Of a DNA stretch of 56,140 nt, positions 4,877 to 24,543 are shown one piece after another (positions within the stretch are counted from its first letter, which is position 1; each line of letters begins with the position of its first letter). The position numbers and the translations under genes are program-made. A model generated the notes under the pieces. That model had not been told where the DNA came from. It ran no database searches and saw nothing but the letters and a program-made list of their open reading frames with translations. This stretch comes from a virus (lineage: Duplodnaviria > Heunggongvirae > Uroviricota > Caudoviricetes), in the IMG/VR virus record IMGVR_UViG_2563366805_000004, positions 1 through 56,140 of that record; one strand, 5' to 3'.

Positions 4877-5566
4877 TCAATGTTTGAGTTCTTCCAGTTC
4901 TATTTTCAACATTCGCAGTTTGGCGTTGATCTCTACCTTGCGGTTGAATTGTTTTTCTTTGGCAAGTCTGCTGGCTATTTTTTCAACCTCACGTTGCTTG
5001 GCTGCAACCAGTTCGACACGTGCGACCAAATCCGCGAGACTTTCTTGTAGGCGCGCGGGCGTGGAGATCAGGCTGTGAAGCAACTGCTCATACAAGCCGC
5101 CCAAGTCGAGTGCTAAGGGCATGGCGGCGCGCTCACAGTCACTCGGCAACCAGGCTGTTGCAAAGTAGTCACTCAAGACCCAACGGCTGGCGTCTGACTC
5201 ATTGGGGCGTTTGTACGCAGCGATCACCTTTGTTCGGCCATCAAAGCTCAGCTCGAAGATAATGGGAAACTGCACTGCGCCATCGATGCAACGCAAAACG
5301 TCCAGATTCAGCTCCGATGCCTTGAGCTGGATTGAGAAAATCTGAAGCTCTGGTACTCCCAGCCTGGCGGGCAGGTTGATCGTTTCCGGAGCCAACTTGT
5401 ATTGCCAGACGATCTGCTCCACCTGCTCGACGAACAAGTCCTTCAGCCTCGTATTGGCGCCGCTGTGTTCGTAGATCTTATTCTTTGGCAGGGTACGACC
5501 AAAGACAGCCTGCTTCGGATAGTTGATGAACGCGGTATTCGACTCAAATCGCGCAGACTGACTCAT
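4877..5566 (-). CDS. DUF4391-like protein
   Basis: 229-aa ORF, 4-nt overlap with helicase stop; family assignment is from recollection of this domain next to helicase/methyltransferase genes, not verified. Confidence 0.5.
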   Translation of the reverse strand: MSQSARFESNTAFINYPKQAVFGRTLPKNKIYEHSGANTRLKDLFVEQVEQIVWQYKLAPETINLPARLGVPELQIFSIQLKASELNLDVLRCIDGAVQFPIIFELSFDGRTKVIAAYKRPNESDASRWVLSDYFATAWLPSDCERAAMPLALDLGGLYEQLLHSLISTPARLQESLADLVARVELVAAKQREVEKIASRLAKEKQFNRKVEINAKLRMLKIELEELKH

Positions 5567-8500
5567 CCGGCCTCCTGAATCACGAGGAAGGTAATCAGTT
5601 CGAAGTCGTCCAGTCCGACGATAGTATTGACCAACGCGGTGGTCTTTCCGCTGCAGAAGAGGCTGTCCAGATCCTTATCTTCCTTCACCTCGATCATTGA
5701 GCGGATGGCCTTGCCAAGCAGGTCCGAATACATCTGCATCTTGCGGCCATCGGCCGTTTCCTTATTGAACAGGAGACAGGCATCTGTAATAGGCTGGGCT
5801 TGTCCCTTGCAGCAGGTGCGAACCAGATCCAGCAAACGTTTGACTTCGGTGTAATCGTGAATGACTTCCCCCTCGCGATTAATGTAGACGAGGTAATAAG
5901 GGTGCAGGCGGTTGTGCTGACTGACGTTGACGCTTGGATTCCGGTTGCGTAGCGTGAAGATTACACCCGGGCGTAGGCCCATCTCCGGCTTGGCAGGCAC
6001 TACGGCGTGCATCCCGCTTGGCACGTTGCTCATTTCGCCATTGGCCTTCACATAGTTGAGCAAGTCCATTCGGAAGTCATTGAGCCCGAGATCAGTAATC
6101 GACACTCCGGTTTTCAGGTCTTCCAGCTCAATCACTTCCTCTTGCAAACGTCGCAATTGCTCTTTGCGATAAGACACATCGTTGGCTTGGGCGCTCAGCA
6201 CATTGTCGTCACCGGTGGCAGTGACATCGGCAATCATCATTCGGCTTTCAACCCGTTCCTTCAGGTTGATGTATTCGTCGAGCGAGATGTCTGGCCAGTA
6301 GTTAACCAGTTGGATGCTGCTGTTGGGTGAGCCGATGCGATCCACACGGCCGAAGCGCTGGATGATGCGCACGGGATTCCAGTGGATGTCGTAGTTGATG
6401 AGGTAGTCGCAGTCCTGTAGGTTCTGGCCTTCAGAGATACAATCGGTGCCGATCAACACATCTATCTCTGCCTCCTCATTTGGCAGCACGATGGCTTTCT
6501 CCTTCGAGTGCGGCGAGAAGAGGGTGAGCAGTTCCTGGAAGTCATAGCTCTTCTTGAGCGTGCTCTTCGGTGCCCCTTTGCCGGTGACTTTTGCACTGTG
6601 CAAGGTCTGTGTAGCCAGCAATTCCGGAGCCAAATTGGCATACAGATAGTCAGCGGTGTCGGCGAAGGCGGTGAAGATCAGCACCTTCTTGTTGCCAGGA
6701 TTCAGCGGTGCTGCGATCTTTTCCAGAACCAGTGCTTTGAGATGCTGCAGTTTGGCATCATCGGCAGCCGTGATCTTGTTCATCGACGTCAGCAAAGCAT
6801 CAATGATTTCCAGATCGACCTTCAGCTCGTGCTCCCAGGAAGGCAAGTCCATATCGGCGAGGCTGATTTTGACCTTGCCACCGATCTCACTGTCGCCATT
6901 GCTTGGCAGGTCGTCGTCCGCGTCGAGGTTTTCTAACTGGTCGGTCAGGTCATTTATTCTGCTATCAATGCCACTGAGGCCGCCAGTCTCATTGAAAGTG
7001 CTGATCTTGGCCAGCGTATTAGTGTGGTTCGCGCGCAGGGACTTGAGCGTCAAGCGGAAAGACTCAATCGAGCTTTCCAGGCGCTTGAGCAGGTTGGTCG
7101 TCATCAATGCCTGCAAACTCTTTTCACGGTCGATTTGTTTAAGCTTGCCTTTCCCTGCAACCTGAGTGTCATACATCTCCTCGTACTTCTTGAGCCGACT
7201 GGGCAGAATGTAGCTGATCGGGGCATAAACGGCGAGCTTGAGCAAAGACAGCTGCTCGAAGATCTCGTTGAAGCTCATCACATCCGTTCGCTGCGTGAGC
7301 GGACAGTGGAACGACAAGGGTTTGCGGCGCTCGGGGAATTGGCCTATTTCCTTGGTGTCGTAGAAAGTCTGGATATGCTTGCGTGAGCGTGCGATGGTGA
7401 CGCTGTCGAGCAATTCGAAGAAGTCGAAGTCCAACGAGTCCAGGATGGCCCGCGCTGTGCGCTCTTCCGGTGGAAGCTTTGCCCATGCATTGAAGCTGGC
7501 CTGCGCACCACGGAAAATGTCCTCTACCGTCTTGCCGGTACGCAGCTTCTTGCTGAGGTTTTCGGAATCGCCTTCGTAGGCCAGTGCCAGTTGGTTGCGC
7601 AGGTCATTGAAGCGGTTGTTCACCGGGGTGGCCGAAAGCATCAGCACCTTGGTCTTCACGCCTTCCTTGATAACCTTGTTCATCAGCTTCTGGTAGCGGG
7701 TTTCCTTGTCCTTATAGGCGTCATTGTTGCGGAAGTTGTGTGACTCGTCGATGACGACGAGGTCGTAGTTGCCCCAGTTAATGCGATTCAGCGGTGTGCC
7801 AAATGACTCACCGCTCGTACGGCTGAGGTCGGTATGACAAAGTACGTCGTAGTTGAACCGGTCGCGAGCAAATATGTTGGTTTTGAGGTTACGGCTGTAG
7901 TTCAGCCAGTTGTCCGCCAGCTTCTTGGGGCATAACACCAGAACTGACTTGTTGCGCAGTTCGTAATACTTTATCACGGCCAGCGCGGTGAAAGTCTTGC
8001 CCAAGCCCACGCTGTCGGCCAAGATGCACCCGCTGTAGCTCTCAAGTTTGTTAATGATCCCGGTGGCAGCATCTTTCTGGTAATTGAAGAGTTTGTTCCA
8101 GATGAGCGTGTCTTGATAGCCTGTGCGGTCGTTCGGTAGGACATCCTCGTTGATGTCGTCCAGAAACTCATTGAAGATATTGTAGAGCATCAGGAAGTAG
8201 ATGCTCTCGGGCGAGTTTTCCTGGTAGACGGATGCAATGTGGTCGCAGATCTGCTCCGTTACATCCTCCAGCTTCTCAGGATCTTGCCAGATCTGGTTAA
8301 ACAGACTGAGGTAGGTCGCCGTAAACGTCGACTCGTCCATTTTGTTGACGAGGTTTGAGACAGCGTTGCCTTGCTGGTAGCCAAGATCGACGGCGGTAAA
8401 TCCGTGCAGTGGCATGTAGGCAGTCTCTGCGGCGGCGGCCTGAACACAAGCAAACTGCTGCATCGGAGCCTTGCTGCGATTGGACTTGAATGTTGCCTTG

Positions 8501-8844
8501 CGCCGCATCCAGTCCGCGCACTCTTTTGCAATTGCGCGCTGGGTCAGTTTGTTACGCAGCTGAATTTCGAACTCACTCCCGTACAAGCTCCGTTCGCGGT
8601 CAGCCTTCGGTATGTGAAATTCTCTGCGTTCCTTGCGAATCTTGTCGGTAACCTCGTTAGCGGTAAACGTCGGTGAGGTAAAGATGAATTGCAGCTCGTC
8701 GATTTTTTCCAGCTCTGCTTTGAGCGCTTCGAACGCGTACATCGAAAAGCAGGAGGCGGCGATCTTCAGGCGAGCACTAGGTTTGAGCGTCTGCTTTAGG
8801 TCGTCTCCGAGCAGGTGGTTGATATTGTCGATCAGTTCCATCAA
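5563..8844 (-). CDS. SNF2-family (SF2) helicase/translocase with ~250-aa N-terminal extension
   Basis: 1093 aa; motif I LADSVGLGKTFTA, motif II VVIDESHNFRN, motif III LMLSATPVNN, motif VI QRFGRVDRIGS; no recognisable nuclease motif seen by eye. Confidence 0.85.
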   Translation of the reverse strand: MMELIDNINHLLGDDLKQTLKPSARLKIAASCFSMYAFEALKAELEKIDELQFIFTSPTFTANEVTDKIRKERREFHIPKADRERSLYGSEFEIQLRNKLTQRAIAKECADWMRRKATFKSNRSKAPMQQFACVQAAAAETAYMPLHGFTAVDLGYQQGNAVSNLVNKMDESTFTATYLSLFNQIWQDPEKLEDVTEQICDHIASVYQENSPESIYFLMLYNIFNEFLDDINEDVLPNDRTGYQDTLIWNKLFNYQKDAATGIINKLESYSGCILADSVGLGKTFTALAVIKYYELRNKSVLVLCPKKLADNWLNYSRNLKTNIFARDRFNYDVLCHTDLSRTSGESFGTPLNRINWGNYDLVVIDESHNFRNNDAYKDKETRYQKLMNKVIKEGVKTKVLMLSATPVNNRFNDLRNQLALAYEGDSENLSKKLRTGKTVEDIFRGAQASFNAWAKLPPEERTARAILDSLDFDFFELLDSVTIARSRKHIQTFYDTKEIGQFPERRKPLSFHCPLTQRTDVMSFNEIFEQLSLLKLAVYAPISYILPSRLKKYEEMYDTQVAGKGKLKQIDREKSLQALMTTNLLKRLESSIESFRLTLKSLRANHTNTLAKISTFNETGGLSGIDSRINDLTDQLENLDADDDLPSNGDSEIGGKVKISLADMDLPSWEHELKVDLEIIDALLTSMNKITAADDAKLQHLKALVLEKIAAPLNPGNKKVLIFTAFADTADYLYANLAPELLATQTLHSAKVTGKGAPKSTLKKSYDFQELLTLFSPHSKEKAIVLPNEEAEIDVLIGTDCISEGQNLQDCDYLINYDIHWNPVRIIQRFGRVDRIGSPNSSIQLVNYWPDISLDEYINLKERVESRMMIADVTATGDDNVLSAQANDVSYRKEQLRRLQEEVIELEDLKTGVSITDLGLNDFRMDLLNYVKANGEMSNVPSGMHAVVPAKPEMGLRPGVIFTLRNRNPSVNVSQHNRLHPYYLVYINREGEVIHDYTEVKRLLDLVRTCCKGQAQPITDACLLFNKETADGRKMQMYSDLLGKAIRSMIEVKEDKDLDSLFCSGKTTALVNTIVGLDDFELITFLVIQEAG

Positions 8845-9746
8845 GAGTCAGCCTTTGTAGCGGCGCTATAGCCTGGTGCCAGTAAGGCGTTTTTCACGCC
8901 GTAAATCGCGAGATGATCTTTGAGCCATAAACGGTACTCCGGTCCATTTAGGCAATGATCGGGTGAGCAGTCAACCCGCCAGCGCTGCAACATATAGCCC
9001 ACTACAGCCGCGCGAACGCGCATCCTAATCGAGCCATCGGCCATCCCGTAGTCCATCTTGATGATCTCGGGGCGTTCAATGCGCGGGTGCGGCACGAAAT
9101 CCAACTCGACGATGCGCGTCCACTGGATATCATTATCCGGTCGTTCGTTGGCCTGTGGAACCTCTTCAAGCAATGTTGGCGCTTCGATGCGGGTGACGAC
9201 GAAATCCCGAAACTCTCCACTTTTGCGATCAAAGGCCCGGGCGTGCCAGCGCAGGCCGGTATCTACCAAAGCAAAGGGCACAATGACCCGTTCGGACTTG
9301 CCGCTGCTCATCGAGTGGTAGCGGATGGCGACGGGGCGCTTGGAGTGGATGGCTCGACAAATCACGGCCAACACATCCATCTTGGGTATGCTCAGGACTG
9401 TGGGGGATTCACAGGGTAGCAACGCCTGCATTGGGCCATTCACGCCATCGCCAAAGCCCAGAGCCAGCGCCGACAGAACACGCTGCGATGCGTGCTCGAA
9501 TAACGGAGAGAACGCCTGCCCGATACGATAGATCTTGTCGCTACCATCAAAGGTGATGTTATTCGGAGCGATTTCCCGGTACAAAGCCAAATCGCGAGTC
9601 GCTCCTGCTGGAGCAACGCCAAAGCGCTCAATCAAATCTGGGCGACCGATCTCACCGAAGAAGTAAAGCCGAAAATCGATGTAGGCCAGCCGTTCGCGCT
9701 GGACCTGGCTCAAGTCGTCAAGCCGCTTACAAGGGGGACTAGGCAT
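8841..9746 (-). CDS. WYL-domain transcriptional regulator, BrxR/CapW-like
   Basis: 301 aa; N-terminal wHTH signature ERLAYIDFRLYFFGEIGRPDLIERFGVAPAGATRDLALYREIAP; stop overlaps helicase start (ATGA); first gene of the co-directional operon. Confidence 0.8.
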   Translation of the reverse strand: MPSPPCKRLDDLSQVQRERLAYIDFRLYFFGEIGRPDLIERFGVAPAGATRDLALYREIAPNNITFDGSDKIYRIGQAFSPLFEHASQRVLSALALGFGDGVNGPMQALLPCESPTVLSIPKMDVLAVICRAIHSKRPVAIRYHSMSSGKSERVIVPFALVDTGLRWHARAFDRKSGEFRDFVVTRIEAPTLLEEVPQANERPDNDIQWTRIVELDFVPHPRIERPEIIKMDYGMADGSIRMRVRAAVVGYMLQRWRVDCSPDHCLNGPEYRLWLKDHLAIYGVKNALLAPGYSAATKADS

Positions 9747-10090
9747 GAATCATCACTATAGGGAAAAATTAAAATTTAATACGGTAATCAATAAAGTGCC
9801 ATGATTATAATCAAATTGATGATAATCGACATTAATATTTATGTAAAAGCAAGAGATGACGTTTCAAACGTAGACAGTCATCGTATTAGCCGATGTTTCT
9901 ACAACGTTAGATTAATGCCTAACAACTATAAAACCTTACTGCCCAATGCCCTATCGCCCCTCGGACAATTTGTCCTTACCCACTGATCTGGCTTGAGGAT
10001 GAGGGGGACAGAATAACCTAACGACTTAGTAGCCGGGATCACCGGCGGAAGGGGTCTAACACCTACCTTAACTCAAATTAATTTCAGTTA

Positions 10091-10250
10091 TATATCATCC
10101 CTCTGAACATATCCGATTAACGGCGGAATCTCTCGATCCTGCCGTTTTTGTATTATTTTTCAGAGGAGTAGTAATGAACAATTCTGAAGGTTTGAAGCCA
10201 TTTCAGCAGTCGCTTGATGGTCTGCCACAATGGGTCTCAGAACGAGTCAT
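10091..10250 (+). repeat. Copy A of ~160-bp direct repeat (5' leader plus first codons of yfjP-type GTPase gene)
   Basis: About 80% identical by eye to 17285-17445; contains a hairpin followed by a T-run just upstream of a GAGGAG RBS. Confidence 0.6.
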
Positions 10251-11037
10251 GCAGCAAATTCGTCAACTGACAAACTACGAACCAGTGATCGGCATCATGG
10301 GTAAAACCGGTGTTGGGAAGAGCAGTCTGTGCAATGCCCTGTTTGCTGGAGAGGTATCGCCGGTCAGCGATGTGGCGGCCTGTACTCGTGAGCCACTGCG
10401 CTTTCGACTGCAAGTTGGCGACCGCCATATGACGCTGGTGGACCTGCCCGGCGTAGGCGAAAGTGGCGCTCGCGATATCGAGTATGCTGCGCTGTATCGC
10501 GAACAACTCCCCCGGCTCGACCTGGTGCTGTGGTTGATCAAGGCTGATGACCGGGCGCTGGCAGTAGATGAACACTTTTATCATCAGGTGATTGGGGAGG
10601 CATACCGGCATAAGGTGCTGTTTGTTATCAGCCAGTCGGATAAGGCCGAACCCACCAGCGGTGGGAGACCATTGTCCATCACGCAGAAGCAGAACATCAG
10701 CCGCAAAATCTGTCTGCTGCATGAGCTGTTCCAGCCCGTACATCCAGTATGTGCCGTGTCGGTCCGTCTTCAGTGGGGGCTGCGGGTGATGGCCGAGCGA
10801 ATGATTAAGTGTCTGCCACGTGAGGCCACCAGCCCGGTGGTGTCGCAACTCCAGCCTTCCTTTCGCACGACGTTAGTCCGGGAGCAGGCTCGTAGCGATT
10901 TTGGTGAAACCATCGGTGCTGTACTCGATAGCATCAGTGCCTTTCCCCTGATACCCGCCCCGGTGCGGGCCGTCATTCAGGCCGTGCGCACCACTGTGGT
11001 GTCAGTGGCCCGCGCCGTCTGGGATTTCTTCTTCTAA
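10174..11037 (+). CDS. yfjP: YfjP/YeeP/YkfA-family GTPase
   Basis: 287 aa; P-loop GIMGKTGVGKSSLCNAL and DLPG motif; length and order match the CP4-57 backbone. Confidence 0.85.
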   Translation: MNNSEGLKPFQQSLDGLPQWVSERVMQQIRQLTNYEPVIGIMGKTGVGKSSLCNALFAGEVSPVSDVAACTREPLRFRLQVGDRHMTLVDLPGVGESGARDIEYAALYREQLPRLDLVLWLIKADDRALAVDEHFYHQVIGEAYRHKVLFVISQSDKAEPTSGGRPLSITQKQNISRKICLLHELFQPVHPVCAVSVRLQWGLRVMAERMIKCLPREATSPVVSQLQPSFRTTLVREQARSDFGETIGAVLDSISAFPLIPAPVRAVIQAVRTTVVSVARAVWDFFF

Positions 11038-11128
11038 GTATTTAACCCATTCCTGTTATTTCCCTGACCCTGTCGCCGATGCGACGGGGATCCCTTTTAT
11101 TTGTTTTCCCGTTATGAGGAGTCTGCTT

Positions 11129-11950
11129 ATGACCCGTCTGGCTTCGCGCTTTGGCGCAGCAAATTTTATCCGTCGCGACCGCCCTTTAACCCGTGAGGAG
11201 CTGTTTCGCGTGGTGCCCAGTGTGTTCAGCGAGGACAAACATGAGTCCCGCAGTGAGCGTTATACCTATATACCCACCATATCCCTGCTGGGCAGCCTAC
11301 AGCGAGAAGGCTTCCAGCCATTCTTTGCCTGTCAGACCCGGGTACGTGACCCGGGTCGTCGGGAACACACAAAGCACATGCTGCGCCTGCGTCGGGAGGG
11401 ACAGATTACCGGTAAGCAGGTGCCGGAAATCATTTTGCTGAATTCACATGATGGCACCAGTTCGTACCAGATGTTGCCGGGACTATTTCGTGCGGTTTGT
11501 CAGAACGGGCTCGTCTGTGGTGAGTCATTTGGCGAGGTGCGGGTGCCGCACAAGGGGGACGTGGTAAGTCAAGTGATTGAAGGCGCGTATGAAGTGCTGG
11601 GCATTTTTGACCGTGTGGAGGAGAAGCGGGATGCGATGCAGTCGTTGCTGTTGCCGCCACCGGCGCAGCAGGCACTGGCAAAAGCCGCGCTGACGTACCG
11701 CTTTGGTGAAGACCACCAGCCGGTGACTGAATCGCAGATCCTCTCCCCGCGCCGCTGGCAGGATGAGAGTAACGACCTGTGGACCACGTATCAGCGTATT
11801 CAGGAGAACCTGATTAAGGGCGGGCTCAGTGGCCGTAATGCCAAAGGGGGACGGTCACATACCCGGGCCGTTCGCGGTATAGACGGGGACGTGAAACTTA
11901 ACCGGGCACTGTGGGTGATGGCGGAAGCGATGCTCACGCAACTGCGGTGA
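11129..11950 (+). CDS. yfjQ: YfjQ-like protein (DUF932 family)
   Basis: Start moved to MTRLASRFGAA (GAGGAG RBS 8 nt upstream); sequence matches recollected YfjQ/YeeQ N-terminus. Confidence 0.75.
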   Translation: MTRLASRFGAANFIRRDRPLTREELFRVVPSVFSEDKHESRSERYTYIPTISLLGSLQREGFQPFFACQTRVRDPGRREHTKHMLRLRREGQITGKQVPEIILLNSHDGTSSYQMLPGLFRAVCQNGLVCGESFGEVRVPHKGDVVSQVIEGAYEVLGIFDRVEEKRDAMQSLLLPPPAQQALAKAALTYRFGEDHQPVTESQILSPRRWQDESNDLWTTYQRIQENLIKGGLSGRNAKGGRSHTRAVRGIDGDVKLNRALWVMAEAMLTQLR

Positions 11951-12166
11951 CCGTTTCATGTTGCCACGTTGTTAATATCGGACACCACCTGTCCGCATTG
12001 CAACGTGCTGGCGGTCCTTACACACCGAGGGATGGCCTGTAACCCCCGCTACATCTGGCTTTTGCAGAAATAAAAAATAGTTTCTGTGGTGTCCATACCC
12101 TGTCCGCCCCCTTATTTAAAGTAATCACATCATTTTCAGTCAGTTAACTTCCACGGAGAACGTCTC

Positions 12167-12868
12167 ATGACACAGGCAGAACGCCGCCATGACCGGCTGG
12201 CTGTCAGACTGTCACTGATAATCAGCCGTCTGGTGGCGGGGGAAACGCTGAGTGTGCATAAGCTGGCCGCTGAGTTTGGTGTGTCGGTGCGCACGCTGCG
12301 GCGTGATTTTCGCGAGCGGCTGATGTATCTGGACCTGGAGTATCAGTCCGGATATTGCCGCTTACGTACTGCTGGCAGTGAAATGCAGATGGTGCCCGAC
12401 GTGCTTATCTTTGCTCACCGCAGCGGGCTGGCCGGACTTTTTCCAGGCCTTGACCGCCGTCTGGTGAACGCTCTGCTGATGTGCGATGAGTCTCCCTGCG
12501 TGATAGCACCAGCTAATCCGGTTCCTTCGCCCTCAGGAGCATTGTCTTTCTGGAGACTGATTCAGGCCATTACCGGGCGCAGGCGGGTGACGCTGATTGC
12601 GGAGGGGCGACGCTGTGAGCGCCTGGCTCCCTGCCGATTACTCATACACCAGCAGACCTGGTATCTGGTGGCTGAACACTACGGGCATATCGCCGTATTC
12701 ACACTTGATGAAATCCATCTGATTCATCCTTTGCAGGAGACTTTTCGCCGCAATGACAGTCTGTGCCGTCTGACTGAAGACCCGGTTTTCATTCAGGCCT
12801 TACCCCATTTTCGCTTTATCCAGCAGTCACTGCTTACGTTTGTTCCGGCTGACAGCCCACCGGAATAG
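12167..12868 (+). CDS. yfjR: YfjR-like HTH transcriptional regulator
   Basis: 233 aa; N-terminal HTH ([21 protein letters not shown]); position after yfjQ. Confidence 0.7.
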
Positions 12869-12908
12869 CGTAGGCGTTGTTATCAACCCGGCAACAGGGA
12901 GGAACCCG

Positions 12909-13154
12909 ATGCCCGTTATTGCCATTATCGCCATTGTTGTTATCGTCATCATTCTGAACAAAACCGGGGTGTCCGACAGCCTCATCGCCCTGACGCTTGC
13001 CACCGTTGCCGCTCTGCTGACGGGCGGCGGTGCAGCCGGTGCTGCCAGTGTTGCACTGACGCCGTTCGTCGGTGTGCCGGTGGGTATTTTTGTGGGGATT
13101 TATGTCTTTGCCAAAGTGGTTCGTCTGATTTCAGGAAAAAATAATGAAACGTAA
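12909..13154 (+). CDS. Small hydrophobic membrane protein (YpjK-like)
   Basis: Start at MPVIAIIAIVV with GGGAGGAA RBS; two predicted TM segments. Confidence 0.5.
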   Translation: MPVIAIIAIVVIVIILNKTGVSDSLIALTLATVAALLTGGGAAGAASVALTPFVGVPVGIFVGIYVFAKVVRLISGKNNET

Positions 13155-13587
13155 AACACTACCTCTGCTGGGGCTGGTTGCCGCCACTCTGTTTCTGAGC
13201 GCCTGCGATGACAGGAGTGATGACCTCAAAGCTATCAGTAAATTTAAGGACCTCACGCCTCCGCGCTTCAGCGATGTTGTCAGCCGTCAGGATGATGTCA
13301 GCGAAGAATGGTCCCAGGTTGGCTTCTCATCCGGTCTCACCCTGCAGGTCTTACGTACCCGCCAGTCGCCCGATGGCTGCGAGGGAGGCAGTTACTACTA
13401 TCTGGTGGATATGGAGGAAAAAACCGTCCAGCCGCTGATGAATGCGCTATGTATTGCCGACAACATCAGCCTGGAATACCACGAGAAAACTGACCCGCGC
13501 ACCCGGGAGCGTTTCCTTGAATATTCCCATGACGGCAAACTGATGGGACGGCTGCTGATACCCTCAAATCCTGATAACCGGGAATAA
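13144..13587 (+). CDS. yfjS: YfjS-like lipoprotein
   Basis: 147 aa; signal peptide with lipobox LFLSAC. Confidence 0.65.
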   Translation: MKRKTLPLLGLVAATLFLSACDDRSDDLKAISKFKDLTPPRFSDVVSRQDDVSEEWSQVGFSSGLTLQVLRTRQSPDGCEGGSYYYLVDMEEKTVQPLMNALCIADNISLEYHEKTDPRTRERFLEYSHDGKLMGRLLIPSNPDNRE

Positions 13588-13610
13588 ATACAAAGACAAA
13601 GGAGACAGAA

Positions 13611-14078
13611 ATGAAAGTACGTTCACTAAGCCGGTATGTGCTCTCAGGCGTGCTGCTTACCAGCTTTAATGCCTCAGCGGTTCCCGGACTATGGCAGCAG
13701 GGTTATGGCCAGGGCAATGCGGAATACAGCGTGACGGATGGCAGCGGAAAGATATTTACCATCAACTGCACGGAAAATCCGGACCAGAACGGTATTTACC
13801 AGCACTCGGTTTTTCTGACCCTCGCAGGGGATAAAACGATCAGCTCGCATGATGACAGTACCGACATCACAGTGGTGATGGACCATAAGCAATATGCCAT
13901 TCCCTCAACCCTTGGCTGGCGTAACGGGGATAATGCCTGGTTTAGTTTCATCATGGATATCCGTAAGGCCAGTCAGTTCGACGTCTACGTTAATGACCGC
14001 AAAGCGGGGACCTTCAGCGTTGACCTGACGAACGCTACGAAAGCACTGCCAACATTAGCAGACTGCACTAACGAGTGA
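13611..14078 (+). CDS. yfjT: YfjT-like secreted protein
   Basis: 155 aa; N-terminal signal peptide (LLTSFNASA); position after yfjS. Confidence 0.6.
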   Translation: MKVRSLSRYVLSGVLLTSFNASAVPGLWQQGYGQGNAEYSVTDGSGKIFTINCTENPDQNGIYQHSVFLTLAGDKTISSHDDSTDITVVMDHKQYAIPSTLGWRNGDNAWFSFIMDIRKASQFDVYVNDRKAGTFSVDLTNATKALPTLADCTNE

Positions 14079-14107
14079 CAGTTGTGCTTTCCATCCATAA
14101 CAACATA

Positions 14108-14141
14108 CCTGACTGCCAGGAGCAGTCAGGGTTTATTTTTT
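14108..14141 (+). terminator. Rho-independent terminator downstream of yfjT-like gene
   Basis: cctgactg / cagtcagg 8-bp stem followed by gtttatttttt. Confidence 0.6.
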
Positions 14142-14275
14142 CCTTTTTATTTCCACCGATTAGTCCAGGCACTTCCGAATGACGATCACAGTGGCCAGTT
14201 TTAGTTGACTATATAGCAATGATAAAATAATCACGTGTTATGTTGAGATTGTTTATTTAGCGGTTGAGAGAAACT

Positions 14276-14464
14276 ATGGATAAAATTTGTGATAAGTGTG
14301 CACACATGATGAGTGCATGCACCTGTGGAACTTGTGAGAACTGTGACGAGAAAGAGTCGGACTGCACCTGCAAAAAATGTAGCCAGTGCAATAAACTTGA
14401 GGACTTCTGCTCTTGCAGAGTTTGTGAAGAATGTAGTGAAAAAGAAGCAGAGTGCTGCTGTTAA
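14276..14464 (+). CDS. Cysteine-rich small protein (62 aa) with three ~15-aa CxCxxCxxC repeats
   Basis: MDKICDKCAHMMSACTCGTCENCDEKESDCTCKKCSQCNKLEDFCSCRVCEECSEKEAECCC; strongly periodic Cys spacing with TGT/TGC codons; GAGAGA RBS-like sequence upstream. Confidence 0.45.
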   Translation: MDKICDKCAHMMSACTCGTCENCDEKESDCTCKKCSQCNKLEDFCSCRVCEECSEKEAECCC

Positions 14465-14699
14465 AATGTTAACAATACAGGCTGCAGGAGCTGCCTGCCT
14501 GCAGCTTCGATTGCCGACGTCAACCGCTCCCAGTTGGTTAGGGTACTTCGATTCTTGCAACAATCGCTGGACTCACAGCACAAAGCGGACAAACTTTCTA
14601 AACCAAAGGTCCGCTGAGAGCGAGAATCAGACGTTACTAAGACATTACGTACACCACGGCGCCTTAGTCGACTGGAAATAGGTATTCCTACCATAAGGT

Positions 14700-16322
14700 T
14701 CATTCTTCCTCATGATAATCGCTCTTGCTCCATAATGGCTTGATAGCGTGATAGGCGCCACTGAATGGACATTTAGAATTTTTGTTCCGCTGGATTCGGA
14801 GCAAATCATCAATATCCTTTTCGATGATTTTTTTTACCTGTGAATGGTATCGCTGAAGTGAGACATCACTAATGGACTTTTCAAAGCGGAGGCTGGTGTC
14901 TTGATTCACAAGATCGTAAACACCGTCTTTTATTTTCATTCTGTTGCCTTCAGGGATGCCCATTTTCAGGTCATAGCATTTCAACCCGGCCAGACGGACT
15001 TCGACACCGACGCGCTCAGTACGTGTTTTCTTGTGGCTAATCAGAAGCACTTTATTGTTTTCGTACCATTTTTCAAAGGATTGCACTATATCTCTGTTCT
15101 TTTGTTGGTTGCCTTGAGAAGCGCTGTAAAAATGATAACTGTTCGAACTATAGACGTGACGTTCCCGGTCGGAGATTTGCGGAATGGTACCTTTCTGCCT
15201 GCGCATCTGGTCGGCAGGCTGCTCATAAATACGTAGTAAGCAGTCTGCGAGAGAGTCTGAAGCATCATGCAACGTATTGGTCTGGATGAGTTTCAGGAGG
15301 GTATCTCGCTTGATTGAAATCTGGCAATAATCGCTCTCCCAAGCCACTGTCGGTTGCTGCTCTTCCCCTTCTGAAGAGGTGGTGATATCAGGCGTAACAG
15401 TGGTGAATTTCCAGACAAATGGTGTTGATTGCGAATATTTGAAATACATCTGAAGCTCAGCCAGCCACTGTATGATCTCCGAAGCATAAATGCCCACATA
15501 CTGGTCGAACAGATATTCGGCGTACTGAGGTGCGCACTGTTCAACAATCCTTTCAATGAACTCAACACGCCCTTCATCGTTAATTAACTTTATTATTTTA
15601 TGGAATACGCCGTTCTTCCGCCTTTCTCCTATCAGAAAATTTGTGTGAACTTTTTCAAATTCGGACAGCCAGTCGGGAGTAACAATGCCGGCATCATGCA
15701 AAGCGGTAATTAAGTTGTAAATTGCATCAGCAAGTATCGGAAGTGAATCTATTTTGTGGAAATCGTTCAATCGGGAAAGTAGCTCCTGGCTGCATGAGTG
15801 CGCAATGGAAAGGTCCTGATGGCAGTAGCCTTTTCGTGCCTGAGGCGGGATTGGCGAACAATGTGTCGGGCCCTCGGCCAAGATGGCAAACATATCATCG
15901 TGAATAAACTGCTCCAGAAGTTTGCTTTGTTCCGTAAAGCGGAACCCCTGCTCTGTTGGCTGCCGGTTCATCTCTCTCCAGGTCTTCAGACTGACCTTGC
16001 CATCATCAAAACCGGCATAGAGTTGATGCATGAAAATGAGTGCATCCATGAGGCTGTCCTGCTTTTGTTCCTTAAAATGAAACTCATATGTGTTCTGAGA
16101 GTAGATTTTGTTGATTTTATTGCTCTGGGCTCGCAGCTTTGTCAGTACCTTGTGCTGCTCATCAAACCACTTGCTGAATTCAGTATCTTCATTCAGTTGC
16201 CGGGCCTTAAGGATGAGGAGAAGTATCTGTTCGCTGATTGCATCATAAATGTTCGGGAAAGGGTTGGCGGCACCAGAAAGAAACGTGCAGAACAGAGACT
16301 TGTTATGTTCAGAATGGTGCAT
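14700..16322 (-). CDS. Hypothetical 540-aa protein, AT-rich (positional equivalent of CP4-57 yfjW)
   Basis: Long uninterrupted ORF in a visibly AT-rich segment with AT-rich promoter-like region upstream (16323-16660); no motif recognised by eye. Confidence 0.6.
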   Translation of the reverse strand: MHHSEHNKSLFCTFLSGAANPFPNIYDAISEQILLLILKARQLNEDTEFSKWFDEQHKVLTKLRAQSNKINKIYSQNTYEFHFKEQKQDSLMDALIFMHQLYAGFDDGKVSLKTWREMNRQPTEQGFRFTEQSKLLEQFIHDDMFAILAEGPTHCSPIPPQARKGYCHQDLSIAHSCSQELLSRLNDFHKIDSLPILADAIYNLITALHDAGIVTPDWLSEFEKVHTNFLIGERRKNGVFHKIIKLINDEGRVEFIERIVEQCAPQYAEYLFDQYVGIYASEIIQWLAELQMYFKYSQSTPFVWKFTTVTPDITTSSEGEEQQPTVAWESDYCQISIKRDTLLKLIQTNTLHDASDSLADCLLRIYEQPADQMRRQKGTIPQISDRERHVYSSNSYHFYSASQGNQQKNRDIVQSFEKWYENNKVLLISHKKTRTERVGVEVRLAGLKCYDLKMGIPEGNRMKIKDGVYDLVNQDTSLRFEKSISDVSLQRYHSQVKKIIEKDIDDLLRIQRNKNSKCPFSGAYHAIKPLWSKSDYHEEE

Positions 16323-16667
16323 TCGGACCTCTTTTTTGTGATATTTATCACAATTTATGATTATGTTTATGCCGTTCAGCTGAAGAGAAAATTGATAAAG
16401 CTGGCCATTTCAACACCGCCGCCTGTGTTTTCATCTAAAAATCATAGCAGAATGATTATAAAAATCACGAAAATTATCTATTTGATTTTAAATTGTGACT
16501 TTTCTTTACCAAAAAACGAAAAATAAAAAAAATTGATAAATTAACAACGTGGAATTTTAAAATTAATCAATTTAATAAAATAATTAACTAACTTGATTTT
16601 TTTATCGCCATATACCATTGTGTCTTCAGCGGGGTGTGTTGCCTCGCATTTCATGAGGGTGATAGAC

Positions 16668-17108
16668 ATGAGTGAAGTAACGACGCAGGATATTGATGAT
16701 GCATTGGAGCGAGCCCAGACGTTGAAAGATATAGCTGAGGAGTTCGTCGATATCGCTGATGGCATCAATAATGCTGAGCGTATCAGATTGGAGGAAGAGC
16801 GTGATATCGACATTGATAGCTCACGCTGGGTTCCTCTGGATGACATCCCACTGGGTGAAGAAGTGCTTCGAGTGAAAGATGATACGCCTAGCCTAGAAAG
16901 CGCAATCCAGACGCTGGAAAACCTGGCTGAAGGTAAAATTCCTGCTGCTGATATCATCGAAAAATTCCAAGAGGCGATGGAAGACCTGGAAACTGTCGAA
17001 GGTACGCTTCAAGATGTAGGCGCAGAAGAAGTCATCAAAGCCTCTCAAGCACCTTACGAAAATGACTTCGACGATGAGCAGGATGACGGGGAATACAGTG
17101 AAGAGTAG
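16668..17108 (+). CDS. Highly acidic small protein (~146 aa)
   Basis: Start at MSEVTTQDIDD; extremely D/E-rich throughout (…ENDFDDEQDDGEYSEE at C-terminus). Confidence 0.6.
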   Translation: MSEVTTQDIDDALERAQTLKDIAEEFVDIADGINNAERIRLEEERDIDIDSSRWVPLDDIPLGEEVLRVKDDTPSLESAIQTLENLAEGKIPAADIIEKFQEAMEDLETVEGTLQDVGAEEVIKASQAPYENDFDDEQDDGEYSEE

Positions 17109-17284
17109 GACAATTAACGGGTATGGCTACCCGTTCAACTTGAACCGCTCCATGTAGTTTGAATTCACGGGCCTGCTATTAAAGTCAGGCCCTGAATTTT
17201 TAAACAACACATGATAATCCTGCGTATTAAGGAACGTCCGCCAATGGCACAGAATGGTCTATCAGCATTATAAAAGTATTCAGA

Positions 17285-17445
17285 TATATATCATTCCTCT
17301 GAACATACCCGATTAGCGGCAGAAACTCACGATTCTGCCGCTTTTTTATTATTTTTCTGAGGAGTAATAATGAACAGTTCTGAAGATTTAAACTCGTTTC
17401 ACCAATCGTTTTATGACCTACCTCAGTGGGTATCGGCTGATTGCG
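17285..17445 (+). repeat. Copy B of ~160-bp direct repeat (see 10091-10250)
   Basis: Near-identical leader, RBS and first ~25 codons of the yfjP-type gene; homology ends inside the ORF. Confidence 0.6.
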
Positions 17446-17654
17446 CAGCAGGGCTACTGGTACCTGTCGGTATCACCGGCATTAACATTGAAGACGACCA
17501 GGGCAGTCACGTCCGCATGATAGTTTGCGATGCCGAAGGTCGGATGGCTGGCAGGCATGGAACTTTTAACCGGAAGCCGGTGAAGGTCTTAACCGCTATA
17601 TCTCCAAGCCAGATATCTTTACGGACTTATTCACCCATTACCAGCAACATTTAA
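17370..17654 (+). pseudogene. Truncated yfjP/yeeP-type GTPase remnant
   Basis: N-terminus MNSSEDLNSFHQSFYDLPQWVS parallels MNNSEGLKPFQQSLDGLPQWVS of the intact gene, but no P-loop follows and the ORF is only 94 aa. Confidence 0.55.
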
Positions 17655-17728
17655 CCTTCCCGAACACACATTATTACTCCATACGCCAGCCATCGCCGCT
17701 GGCGTTTTTTATTGACGGAGACATACCC

Positions 17729-18187
17729 ATGACAACAGCGGCACAAAACAATCTTGCATCTGCTAACGAGTCCGAATTTGAACTGACCGTAACGCAGGTA
17801 CCTGACGAACAGCGTCTCGATTTCTGGCCGCAGCACTTTGGCGCTATCCCGCAGTGGATAACGCTGGAACCCCATATTTTCGCCTGGATGGACCGCTTCT
17901 GTGATGAGTACTGCGGGGGTATCTGGTCCTTTTACACGCTCAGCAATGGCGGCGCGTTTATGGCCCCAGATGCTGAGAGTGGCGATAAATGGCACCTGTG
18001 CAACAGCATGAACGGCAATGGTGCGCAAATGAGCGCGGAAGCCGCAGGTATCGCTGTCTGCCTGATTGAATACAGCCATCACGCCTGTCGCACCGAATGT
18101 GATGCCATGACTGAGCACTATTACCGCCTGCGGGATTACGCCCTGCAGCACCCTGAATCCAGCGCCATTCTGAGCATTATTGATTGA
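17729..18187 (+). CDS. yfjX: Antirestriction protein (YfjX/KlcA/ArdB-like)
   Basis: 152 aa; conserved position and length in CP4-type islands. Confidence 0.8.
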   Translation: MTTAAQNNLASANESEFELTVTQVPDEQRLDFWPQHFGAIPQWITLEPHIFAWMDRFCDEYCGGIWSFYTLSNGGAFMAPDAESGDKWHLCNSMNGNGAQMSAEAAGIAVCLIEYSHHACRTECDAMTEHYYRLRDYALQHPESSAILSIID

Positions 18188-19596: not shown

Positions 19597-19928
19597 ACGC
19601 TTAAATACAGAGCAGACTAAAGGAAAGCAACATGCTAATCTCACAGACGAAGAAGCTCCTGCTGTAACCTCCCCTCCCCTGCAAAAAAACCTGACATTTT
19701 CTTTTAGGACCAACAATAGGACCAAAATAAAATTTGAATTGAAAGTTAAAAATTATAAAACAACAAGTTACACAACCAATTCAGACTCCGCCAGCCCAAT
19801 CATGATTGGACGGTGTAAGGACAACACCAACAAAAACAGGAAGTTAGCAGTCTCAGCAGGACACCGACCAGACGGTGAGGAGACAAAAAAGGATACGCAA
19901 AGGAGCCGCGGCTCTCGAGTGACACAAA

Positions 19929-19956
19929 AGCCCGCTTATGCGGGCTTTTTGTTTTT
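19929..19956 (+). terminator. Rho-independent terminator
   Basis: agcccgc ttat gcgggct hairpin followed by tttttgttttt. Confidence 0.6.
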
Positions 19957-20032: not shown

Positions 20033-21241
20033 ATGTCGGTTTTTCATAACTGGCTGCTTGATATCGCAAGCGGGAATTACTTTATCTACATCAAACGCCT
20101 TTCTGCAAACGACACAGGCGCAACAGGTGGCCATCAGGTCGGACTTTATATCCCCTCAAATATCGTTGAAAAGCTTTTTCCATCTATCAATCATACTCGC
20201 GAACTGAACCCTTCAGTCTTCCTTACTGCGCATGTATCATCCCATGATTGCCCTGATACCCAAGCACGCGCAATTTATTACAACAACCGTTATTTTGGTA
20301 AGACCCGAAACGAAAAAAGAATTACGCGCTGGGGGAGAGGAAGTCCATTACAGAACCCTGAAAATACAGGAGCCCTCACAATTCTTGCTTTCAGGTTAAA
20401 CGAACAGAACACTGACTGTTCCGAGGTAGATATATGGGTCTGCGTCAATCCCGATGAAGAGGATATCATCGAGTCTGCTATTGGCGAAATCATACCTGGA
20501 ACCCTAATTTCCGGCCCTGCCGGACAAATTTTGGGCGGATTGTCTCTTCAGCAAACTCCAGTAAATCATAAATATGTTATTCCTGAAGACTGGAAGAAGC
20601 GTTTTCCTTCTGGAAACGAAATTATTCAATATGCTGCTGGCCATTATGCTAAAAACTCCAAGGATCCAGATGAGCAACTGATTGACCGTCGGCGTGTCGA
20701 GTATGATATTTTTCTACTCGTCGAGGAATTACATGTTCTTGATATTATTAAGAAAGGATTCGATTCTGTAGATGAGTTTATTGCATTAGCCAACTCTGTC
20801 AGTAATCGACGTAAATCAAGGGCAGGCAAATCACTTGAACTTCACCTAGAGAAGCTTTTTATCGAGCACGGACTACGGCATTTCTCCACTCAGGCAGTTA
20901 CTGAAGGTAATAAAAAACCAGATTTCCTGTTTCCTTCAGCAGAGGCATATCATAACGTTGAATTTCCTGTAGAAAACTTACGTATGCTGGCAGTAAAGAC
21001 CACCTGCAAAGATCGCTGGCGTCAGATACTGAATGAAGCAGATAAAATCCATCAGGTACATTTATTTACACTGCAAGAAGGTGTTTCTTCAGCACAATAC
21101 CGAGAAATGAAAGATGCGGGTGTCAGACTCGTTGTACCATCAACTTTACATAAAAAATACCCAGAAGCAGTTAGAGAAGAATTAATAACGCTCGGAGCAT
21201 TCATTACTGAGCTGATAGAGCTTTACGCTGAACTATCATAG
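20033..21241 (+). CDS. ecoRIIR: EcoRII-like Type IIE restriction endonuclease
   Basis: Near full-length match to recollected EcoRII (MSVFHN…RLSANDTG…GGHQVGLYIPS…VENLRMLAVKTTCKDRWRQILNEADKIHQVHLFTLQEG). Confidence 0.9.
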   Translation: MSVFHNWLLDIASGNYFIYIKRLSANDTGATGGHQVGLYIPSNIVEKLFPSINHTRELNPSVFLTAHVSSHDCPDTQARAIYYNNRYFGKTRNEKRITRWGRGSPLQNPENTGALTILAFRLNEQNTDCSEVDIWVCVNPDEEDIIESAIGEIIPGTLISGPAGQILGGLSLQQTPVNHKYVIPEDWKKRFPSGNEIIQYAAGHYAKNSKDPDEQLIDRRRVEYDIFLLVEELHVLDIIKKGFDSVDEFIALANSVSNRRKSRAGKSLELHLEKLFIEHGLRHFSTQAVTEGNKKPDFLFPSAEAYHNVEFPVENLRMLAVKTTCKDRWRQILNEADKIHQVHLFTLQEGVSSAQYREMKDAGVRLVVPSTLHKKYPEAVREELITLGAFITELIELYAELS

Positions 21242-23958: not shown

Positions 23959-24543
23959 TTACACGGTGTCTGGTTCTTCTGGCCACTCAATATCCGGTGC
24001 AGTTGATGTATCAACACGGTTCAGCAACACCCGATACTTTTTCCAGGCTTCCAGCAATGAGGTTTCTTCCTCCGTTGCGATTTCCAGATCTACAGCATCC
24101 TGAAGTGGCGCAATATGCTCACTGGCTACCTGCATCAGGCTGTTTTTTGTTTCTTCTGCCTCCCGGATCCGGAACAGTTTTTCTGCTTCCGTATCCTTCA
24201 CCCAGGCTGTGCCGTTCCACTTCTGATATTCCCCTCCCGGCGACAACCAGGTAACATTTTCCGGTAACGGACCGAGTTCAGAAATAAATAACGCGTCGCC
24301 GGAAGCCACGTCATAAACCGTTTTACCCCGATGGTCTTCAACGAGATGCCACGATGCCTCATCACTGTTGAAAACAGCCACGAAGCCTGCCGGAATATCT
24401 GGTGGTGCAATATCGGTACTGTTTGCTGGCAGACCTGTATGAGGCGGAATATATGCGTCACCTTCACCAATAAATTCATTAGTTCCGGCCAGCAGATTAT
24501 AAATTTTTATGGTCCGTGCTTGTTCACTCATTCTGAATGCCAT
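23959..24543 (-). CDS. tfa: Tail fiber assembly protein Tfa
   Basis: 194 aa; conserved C-terminus [19 protein letters not shown] typical of lambda Tfa family; directly downstream of stf. Confidence 0.85.

Follow-up and report, generated by a model that had tools for sequence, protein, structure and literature searches.

The closest described relative of the locus treated here lies in the CP4-57 island of Escherichia coli K-12, where the pseudogene ypjI occupies the spacer between yfjW and yfjX. The locus itself belongs to a stretch of 56,140 nucleotides (nt) filed as a virus of the Caudoviricetes (IMG/VR record IMGVR_UViG_2563366805_000004, positions 1 to 56,140), which was analysed at full length and is called the window below. 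In it, the leader and the 5' end of a yfjP-type GTPase gene occur twice in direct orientation, upstream as copy 1 and downstream as copy 2. On sequence comparison, copy 2 is a diverged ortholog of the K-12 ypjI region with different cargo. Both regions lie between cargo and an antirestriction gene, and both contain the same leader copy, the same ATG and the same junction of a truncated GTPase gene with a truncated DUF905 gene; the flanking backbone proteins are 84-98% identical. The DNA, however, is only ~82-83% identical, and the K-12 open reading frame (ORF) has in-frame stops whereas the window ORF is open. The cargo of K-12 is an ars remnant plus yfjW, that of the window a protein of 540 amino acids (aa) plus an acidic protein. 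Copy 1 of K-12 belongs to a different leader lineage and is 72% identical to its own copy 2. A first-pass annotation of the window had recommended comparison with the K-12 CP4 elements, and this revealed that the arrangement is ancestral and already annotated there as the pseudogene ypjI. A literature search on ypjI returned no relevant paper.

Other likenesses concern regulation. In Pseudomonas aeruginosa, promoters under AlpA control (alpB, PA0807) combine an internal factor-loading site with an intrinsic terminator shortly before the first gene (PMC7969949, PMC9371919); once the factor is loaded there, polymerase can pass terminators (PMC7969949). The window leader likewise has a conserved block between a putative -35 element and the -10 element and a terminator-like hairpin just before the first gene. 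Further intergenic hairpins follow at 11068, 14108 and 17683, and K-12 CP4-57 encodes a protein named AlpA. The binding motif GGGACGN5GGTA is, however, absent from the window leader, and no alpA gene was identified in the window; the likeness may be taken as an analogy only. With classical attenuators the window leader shares a GC-rich stem and a U-run between promoter and Shine-Dalgarno (SD) sequence, conserved by covariation, but it shows no detectable leader peptide or ligand-binding domain, nor an antiterminator helix as an alternative fold.

Integrative islands and phage satellites carry variable hotspots for cargo or defence genes. Islands of the window type resemble them in having sharp conserved borders around interchangeable cargo (Gabija, ars, transporters and others). 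They differ in the nature of the borders, the right one being a putative relic promoter-leader fused to a pseudogene and the left one a 65-nt unit that can form arrays.

The repeat pair

A repeat search of the window identified one direct repeat of 156 nt (10083-10238 and 17279-17434), ungapped, with 82% identity and a spacing of 7196 nt. blastn aligned 153 nt of the copy pair at 82.4% identity (E=2.8e-36), and MAFFT gave a concordant alignment. A third copy of the leader repeat was not found by blastn in the 56-kb window, so that the copies number two only. The likeness is clear over the leader, the SD sequence and the first 22 codons (MNNSEGLKPFQQSLDGLPQWVS vs MNSSEDLNSFHQSFYDLPQWVS), and a fainter one extends to about codon 29. 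Identical positions amount to 79 of 91 in the non-coding leader and 49 of 66 in the first 22 codons; the longest exact run common to both copies measures 12 nt. The pairwise alignment thus confirms what the first-pass annotation had reported, a recurrence of the leader, the ribosome-binding site and the first ~25 GTPase codons about 7.2 kb downstream. Comparisons were made with 39 Enterobacterales genome loci encoding relatives of the window GTPase. The features of the two copies are the following.

10083-10238, plus strand: repeat copy 1, native leader and 5' end of the yfjP-type GTPase gene
10093-10098, plus strand: -10-like hexamer TATCAT of copy 1, within the conserved box TTCAGtTATATATCAT
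10120-10159, plus strand: terminator-like hairpin (10120-10145) and T-run (TTTTTGTATTATTTT) of copy 1, with covariation
10163-11037, plus strand: yfjP-type GTPase gene, intact, SD GAGGAG at 10163-10168, ATG at 10174, 287 aa, P-loop GKTGVGKS
17279-17434, plus strand: repeat copy 2, relic leader and 5' end of a GTPase gene
17289-17294, plus strand: -10-like hexamer TATCAT of copy 2, box diversity 0.019 within the copy-2 lineage
17315-17355, plus strand: hairpin (17315-17342; -16 kcal/mol, z -5.9) and T-run of copy 2, diversity 0.022
17370-17654, plus strand: chimeric 94-aa ORF, ortholog of the K-12 pseudogene ypjI, GTPase N-terminus fused to a DUF905 remnant, no P-loop

Origin of the second copy

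Copy 2 reads into a 94-aa ORF without a P-loop, as had been described; its match to DUF905 had been missed. Residues 1-22 represent the GTPase N-terminus, and residues 31-67 match positions 16-52 of Pfam DUF905 (1.5e-10). The Prokaryotic Genome Annotation Pipeline (PGAP) lists a DUF905 pseudogene at this ORF. When the region is aligned to intact DUF905 genes, the joint falls at a CAGCAG microhomology (17446-17451), where GTPase codons ~27-29 (...LQQ...) pass into DUF905 codons ~14-16 (...RQQ...). Small indels on both sides are later in origin. The ypjI gene of MG1655 (b4644) has the same junction and begins at exactly the copy-2 ATG. The junction, ...TGGGyATCGG/CTGATTGCGyAGCAGGG, is found in 22 metagenome contigs as well as in K-12, in Kluyvera georgiana and in two E. 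coli strains with further cargo types. Since all carriers have it in common, it arose once and long ago. The Kluyvera copy of the chimeric ORF, like that of K-12, contains in-frame stop codons, while the window copy is open for 94 aa.

In carriers of the junction, homology also extends for another ~35-50 nt on the upstream side of the box, of which ~35 nt recur in the leader of an intact GTPase gene in a Buttiauxella locus (L009). The copy-2 alleles form a group of their own, with 82-99% identity among themselves and 86-88% to the L009 leader. They occur together with three different copy-1 lineages, which are 70-82% identical to copy 2. Because this group stands beside three copy-1 lineages and has its closest intact leader in L009, copy 2 did not arise by local duplication of copy 1. 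Leaders of other genera are 88-90% identical to copy 1, and the 82% identity between the copies is not above that of leaders of unrelated islands. The first-pass annotation would have given up a recombination boundary if the identity were no better than that of generic paralogs and a breakpoint were lacking; the identity is indeed no higher, but the breakpoint is defined at CAGCAG. An in-situ tandem duplication was considered and rejected in view of the deletion- or fusion-type junction and the three different copy-1 lineages.

Copy 2 thus appears to be what remains of the left end of a different island of this family, which was fused once to a DUF905 gene and has since been inherited and recombined. 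Its nearest intact relative would be the Buttiauxella leader, and it would have arrived with cargo DNA, which normally lies immediately upstream of such leaders. By an alternative route, tandem islands followed by deletion would lead to the same product. In compact relatives (L004, L008, L011-L013, L030, L039, L042), yfjT is followed by a terminator hairpin, an SD sequence, an intact DUF905 gene and ArdB; a second leader is lacking, and there is no space for a promoter. The K-12 pseudogene ypjI is explained as a chimera in which a GTPase start is joined to a DUF905 gene, and would mark the place where one CP4-type island captured cargo and leader from another. Current views are not overturned by this well-behaved case of mosaic island evolution.

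A second, independent relic leader is present in Kluyvera georgiana (L014, 9027-9110). It comprises hairpin, T-run, SD sequence and five GTPase codons and lies 0.9 kb upstream of the functional leader. Leftover leaders therefore recur.

Island backbone and cargo slot

The window holds a CP4-57-type island, judged by identity and gene order. A few E. coli chromosomes (e.g. PCP06171) match the region at 100% identity, K-12 CP4-57 at 82-89%. Gene order was derived from Pfam hits, the PGAP annotation of an identical strain, the K-12 comparison and the 39 loci. The window presents a minus-strand WYL-type regulator, yfjP-yfjQ-yfjR-ypjK-yfjS-yfjT, the minus-strand 540-aa protein, the acidic protein, the 94-aa ORF, ArdB, RadC/JAB, DUF987, YeeU and CbtA. 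This agrees with the CP4-57/CP4-6-type backbone order GTPase - DUF932 - DeoR/WYL - YpjK - YfjS - YfjT - (DUF905) - ArdB - RadC/JAB - DUF987 - YeeU antitoxin - CbtA toxin. The features between and beyond the copies are the following.

11114-14078, plus strand: backbone genes yfjQ (DUF932), yfjR (DeoR/WYL), ypjK, yfjS and yfjT, in the same order in all relatives
14108-14130, plus strand: conserved terminator hairpin 3' of yfjT, directly followed in compact relatives by SD and ATG of the intact DUF905 gene
14571-14635, plus strand: 65-nt double inverted-repeat unit, left border of the cargo slot
14636-17235: variable low-GC cargo slot with the 540-aa protein (14700-16322, minus strand) and the acidic 146-aa protein (16668-17108, plus strand)
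17236-17278, plus strand: degenerate half unit (GTCCGCCAATGGCACAGAATGG, 17236-17257) and A/T-rich spacer, sharp right border in 13 cargo contexts
17683-17705, plus strand: hairpin and T-run, followed by an antirestriction gene (ArdB/KlcA-type, 17729-18187), the first intact gene 3' of copy 2

Two thirds of the bracketed 7.2 kb, from yfjP to yfjT, are syntenic backbone in all relatives. The guanine plus cytosine (GC) content is 39-47% in the cargo slot versus 52-58% in the backbone. Elsewhere the slot contains Gabija, a LysR-AzlCD-hydrolase set, the ars remnant with yfjW (K-12), an intact ars operon, or transporters and oxidoreductases, with more than 10 cargos in all. Across 13 different cargo contexts its right border does not vary, its left border always lies within 14623-14636, and yfjT is found upstream in every context with a long enough flank. 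On this comparison, the cargo upstream of copy 2 has been swapped many times since the fusion. The 540-aa protein and the acidic 146-aa protein have no match in PADLOC, NCBIfam or Pfam; sharing a slot with Gabija or ars, the pair is a candidate for an accessory or defence function. A second cargo hotspot of CP4-57-type islands is thereby located, which aids mining for defence systems, including the unannotated protein pair. What merits further attention is the conserved leader together with the bordered cargo slot.

The first-pass annotation had stated that the repeats bracket the segment from yfjP to the acidic protein and could mark a past recombination or insertion boundary. A recombination breakpoint does exist at copy 2, at the CAGCAG joint; the repeats do not form the two ends of one inserted or excisable segment. 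Copy 1 does not lie at a cargo border, and the foreign DNA has its borders at 14636 and 17235. Loci lacking the bracketed segment, which had been named as worth seeking, were not found in the 39 genome loci, in several E. coli genomes or in the 22 metagenome contigs, many of which do not reach far enough upstream to settle the matter.

The conserved leader

A homologous leader with a sharp upstream limit precedes the GTPase gene in 39 of 39 loci. From 5' to 3' it comprises an almost invariant box (TTCAGATATATATCAT), a variable segment of short length, a stem-loop with a T-run, AGGAG and the ATG. Copy 1, by layout and position, is the normal leader of the yfjP-family GTPase gene in its usual place. 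The unit that recurs is the predicted expression leader of the backbone operon in islands of the CP4-57/CP4-6 type.

The last six bases of the box read TATCAT in 33, TATTAT in three and TATAAT in one of 37 leaders. Only position 4 of the -10 hexamer varies, and the bases T1, A2 and T6 of a sigma-70 -10 element are kept in all 37. Binding of the RpoD holoenzyme to the K-12 spacers rnlB-yfjP and perR-ykfA was reported from systematic evolution of ligands by exponential enrichment (SELEX), and the hexamer pair TTGAAA-15-TATCAT was assigned there (Shimada 2014, PMC3946193). Binding was also found in the yfjW-yfjX spacer, which contains the second copy of K-12 (PMC3946193). The RpoS holoenzyme binds the same K-12 spacers in vitro (PMC5493296).

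The hairpin plus T-run noted earlier in the repeat leader is present in both copies and conserved in structure. In a MAFFT alignment of 37 leaders, 93.7% of the alignment cells in the stem are paired, with compensatory changes at 10 of the 11 pairs. None of 500 shuffles reached the observed value, and slid controls were 32-50% paired. RNAalifold, run independently, returned the same helix and no other, with compensatory changes in 8 of 9 pairs. Some loci carry wholly different stems at the same leader position (AAGGCAGC...GCTGCCTT, AAGCAGTCT...AGACTGCTT). The element has the sequence features of an intrinsic terminator, i.e. a GC-rich stem-loop with an immediate U-run on the coding strand, the structure being kept by compensatory substitutions. 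Neither leader matches an Rfam family, whether at the gathering threshold or at permissive ones; below threshold, Xoo2 scores highest (13.4 bits vs a threshold of 45, E=3.8). Because only ~25 nt, without promoter-like sequence, part the hairpin from the start codon, the GTPase gene must be transcribed through it. The most economical reading is a promoter followed by a presumed attenuating intrinsic terminator. The widespread yfjP/ykfA/yeeP GTPase operons thus have a conserved, covarying leader, predicted to be promoter plus terminator and absent from Rfam, a possible control point of these cryptic islands.

An anti-SD helix (CCUCUGAA with UUCAGAGG), obtained from single-sequence folds, was rejected as a conserved feature. 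It is 75.6% paired with compensatory changes in 3 of 8 pairs, is absent from the RNAalifold structure and lies mostly upstream of the predicted start.

Probable function of the second copy and alternative explanations

Among the carriers, the 91-nt leader of copy 2 is 89-99% identical (mean 91%), the intact ArdB gene 90%, and the two parts of the ORF reach means of 84% and 74%. Pairwise diversity across 13 distinct copy-2 contexts is low in the box (0.019) and the hairpin (0.022) and higher in the ORF remnant (0.111) and the adjoining spacers (0.10-0.14); box and hairpin are ~5-fold less diverse than the decaying ORF. Copy 2 probably survives as promoter and attenuator of the ArdB-RadC-DUF987-YeeU-CbtA genes. 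This reading draws on the low diversity of box and hairpin, the holoenzyme binding in the K-12 spacer, the compact islands without a promoter before DUF905 and ArdB, and the opposite-strand gene and hairpins of the cargo. The ORF would be a decaying pseudogene, while the promoter box and the hairpin would be kept by selection. Since the cargo has terminators and an opposite-strand gene, the ArdB-to-CbtA genes are proposed to be cut off from the yfjP promoter, and copy 2 would now supply their promoter and attenuating leader. The hairpin would most likely act as a leaky or factor-regulated terminator that holds expression low.

Several points weigh against this account. The -35 region is poor, with weak matches at a spacing of 15 bp (CTCAAA and TTATAA here, TTGAAA in K-12) instead of 16-18 bp, and a generic promoter scan called neither copy 1 nor copy 2. 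The resolution of SELEX is the spacer only, and the hexamer pair chosen by the authors in yfjW-yfjX lies just upstream of copy 2 (PMC3946193). The argument from selection draws on 13 related sequences. The two routes of origin, donor fragment and tandem islands plus deletions, give one indistinguishable product. E. coli Term-seq supplements (Adams 2021) have no entries for yfjP, ykfA, yfjX, ypjI or yeeP, the islands being possibly silent in the laboratory. A mobile element lies inside the copy-2 -10 box in strains 0H15-0H26 and in contig L056 (~930-1010), in otherwise identical islands; annotation at the interrupted boxes lists IS3 transposases and a group II intron. The box is therefore dispensable at least in these strains and this contig.

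The interrupted boxes and the missing Term-seq entries would also fit an inert fossil, a recombination scar without present function whose downstream genes use other promoters. The pseudogene state of the ORF in K-12 and Kluyvera and an SD sequence degenerated to GGGGGG in several lineages point the same way. An inert copy 2 is nevertheless unlikely, as it leaves unexplained why box and hairpin vary ~5-fold less than the adjoining ORF and spacer and why the leader equals the intact ArdB gene in conservation. The in vitro binding of holoenzyme to the orthologous K-12 spacer and the lack of promoter space before DUF905 and ArdB in compact relatives argue in the same direction. A different role was considered for the leader as a whole, namely that box and hairpin encode a short terminated RNA (~45 nt) or an insulating terminator, the two copies then being two small-RNA paralogs. 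A strong stem (11 bp in most leaders) with U5 behind it lies ~15 nt past the predicted start; this is the layout of an Hfq-type small-RNA 3' end. The GTPase gene must, however, be read through the hairpin, since only ~25 nt without promoter-like sequence lie between hairpin and GTPase start. Variation within the leader is greatest in the 15-nt segment 5' of the stem, and neither an Rfam family match nor a reported RNA was found, which makes this role improbable.

An inserted or excisable segment with the repeats as its ends, arisen as an insertion duplication or looped out from yfjP through the acidic protein by recombination, is already largely refuted and appears very improbable. It has in its favour that the direct repeats physically bracket 7.2 kb containing low-GC cargo. 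Efficient RecA recombination needs roughly 20-30 bp, however, and at 82% identity the longest exact run of 12 nt falls short of this; no empty or deleted form was seen in the loci and contigs compared. Copy 1 is a normal leader at all 39 loci, the bracketed DNA is mostly syntenic backbone, and yfjT is kept upstream wherever the flank suffices. The joint of copy 2 is of the deletion or fusion type and not of the duplication type, and copy 2 stands beside three unrelated copy-1 lineages.

Inverted-repeat units at the slot borders

The unit at the left border has the consensus GTCCGCTyyTGGCACrAAGCGGAC - ~20 nt - GGTCCGCTGTGAGCGArGAnCGGAC, i.e. two inverted repeats built on GTCCGCT/AGCGGAC. Units with unrelated flanks were found in other islands. 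In one locus (L018), three units in one orientation stand between cargo blocks (14397-14460, 19881-19945, 20587-20652). In another (L042), a unit at 773-841 lies left of a retron cargo, which ends at a half unit, the leader and an intact GTPase gene. In E. coli the unit is rare: a genome has it at one or two places, none of them annotated, and Rfam offers no match. It may be a recombination site, a small mobile repeat or an RNA element.

By inspection, an integron attC site was rejected, the ends of the unit (..AACG/TCCGCT and CGGACrT/) being unlike the core sites R'' RYYYAAC and R' GTTRRRY. Nor was an integron integrase seen near the units. A sigma-54 reading of TGGCAC in the half unit was likewise rejected, because the spacing from GG to GC is one base short.

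A more far-reaching scheme is doubtful but may be stated. The leader would be a dedicated switch module before each backbone block, composed of a promoter with a factor-loading box and an intrinsic terminator that is read through only under processive antitermination. Together with the ~65-nt units, it would form a previously undescribed cassette-exchange system that loads defence, resistance and metabolic cargo directly upstream of the leader.

Further observations

A cysteine-rich ORF of 66 aa with many CxxC motifs (14264-14464, plus strand) has no family match. Its module of ~550 nt sits between the yfjT terminator and the 65-nt unit and is shared at 87-94% identity by loci of Kluyvera, Atlantibacter, Mangrovibacter, Buttiauxella, Leclercia and E. 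coli.

Directly upstream of copy 1, the minus strand of the window (4877-9746) encodes a WYL-domain regulator (301 aa), an HKD plus Snf2 helicase (PADLOC C3a139, 4e-128) and a DUF4391 protein. Defence-type cargo likewise abuts a copy-1-type leader in K-12 (RnlAB, AbpAB) and in L042 (retron Eco8).

Terminator-like hairpins are present on the plus strand in several intergenic regions of the backbone at 11068-11089, 14108-14130, 17683-17705 and 19926-19949. Some directly precede the SD sequence of the next gene, as before yfjQ, before DUF905 in compact relatives and before ArdB. The series suggests serial attenuation or antitermination control. Outside the region of the two copies, IS009 at 24002-24200 (minus strand, 229 bits) is the only Rfam match of the window at gathering level.

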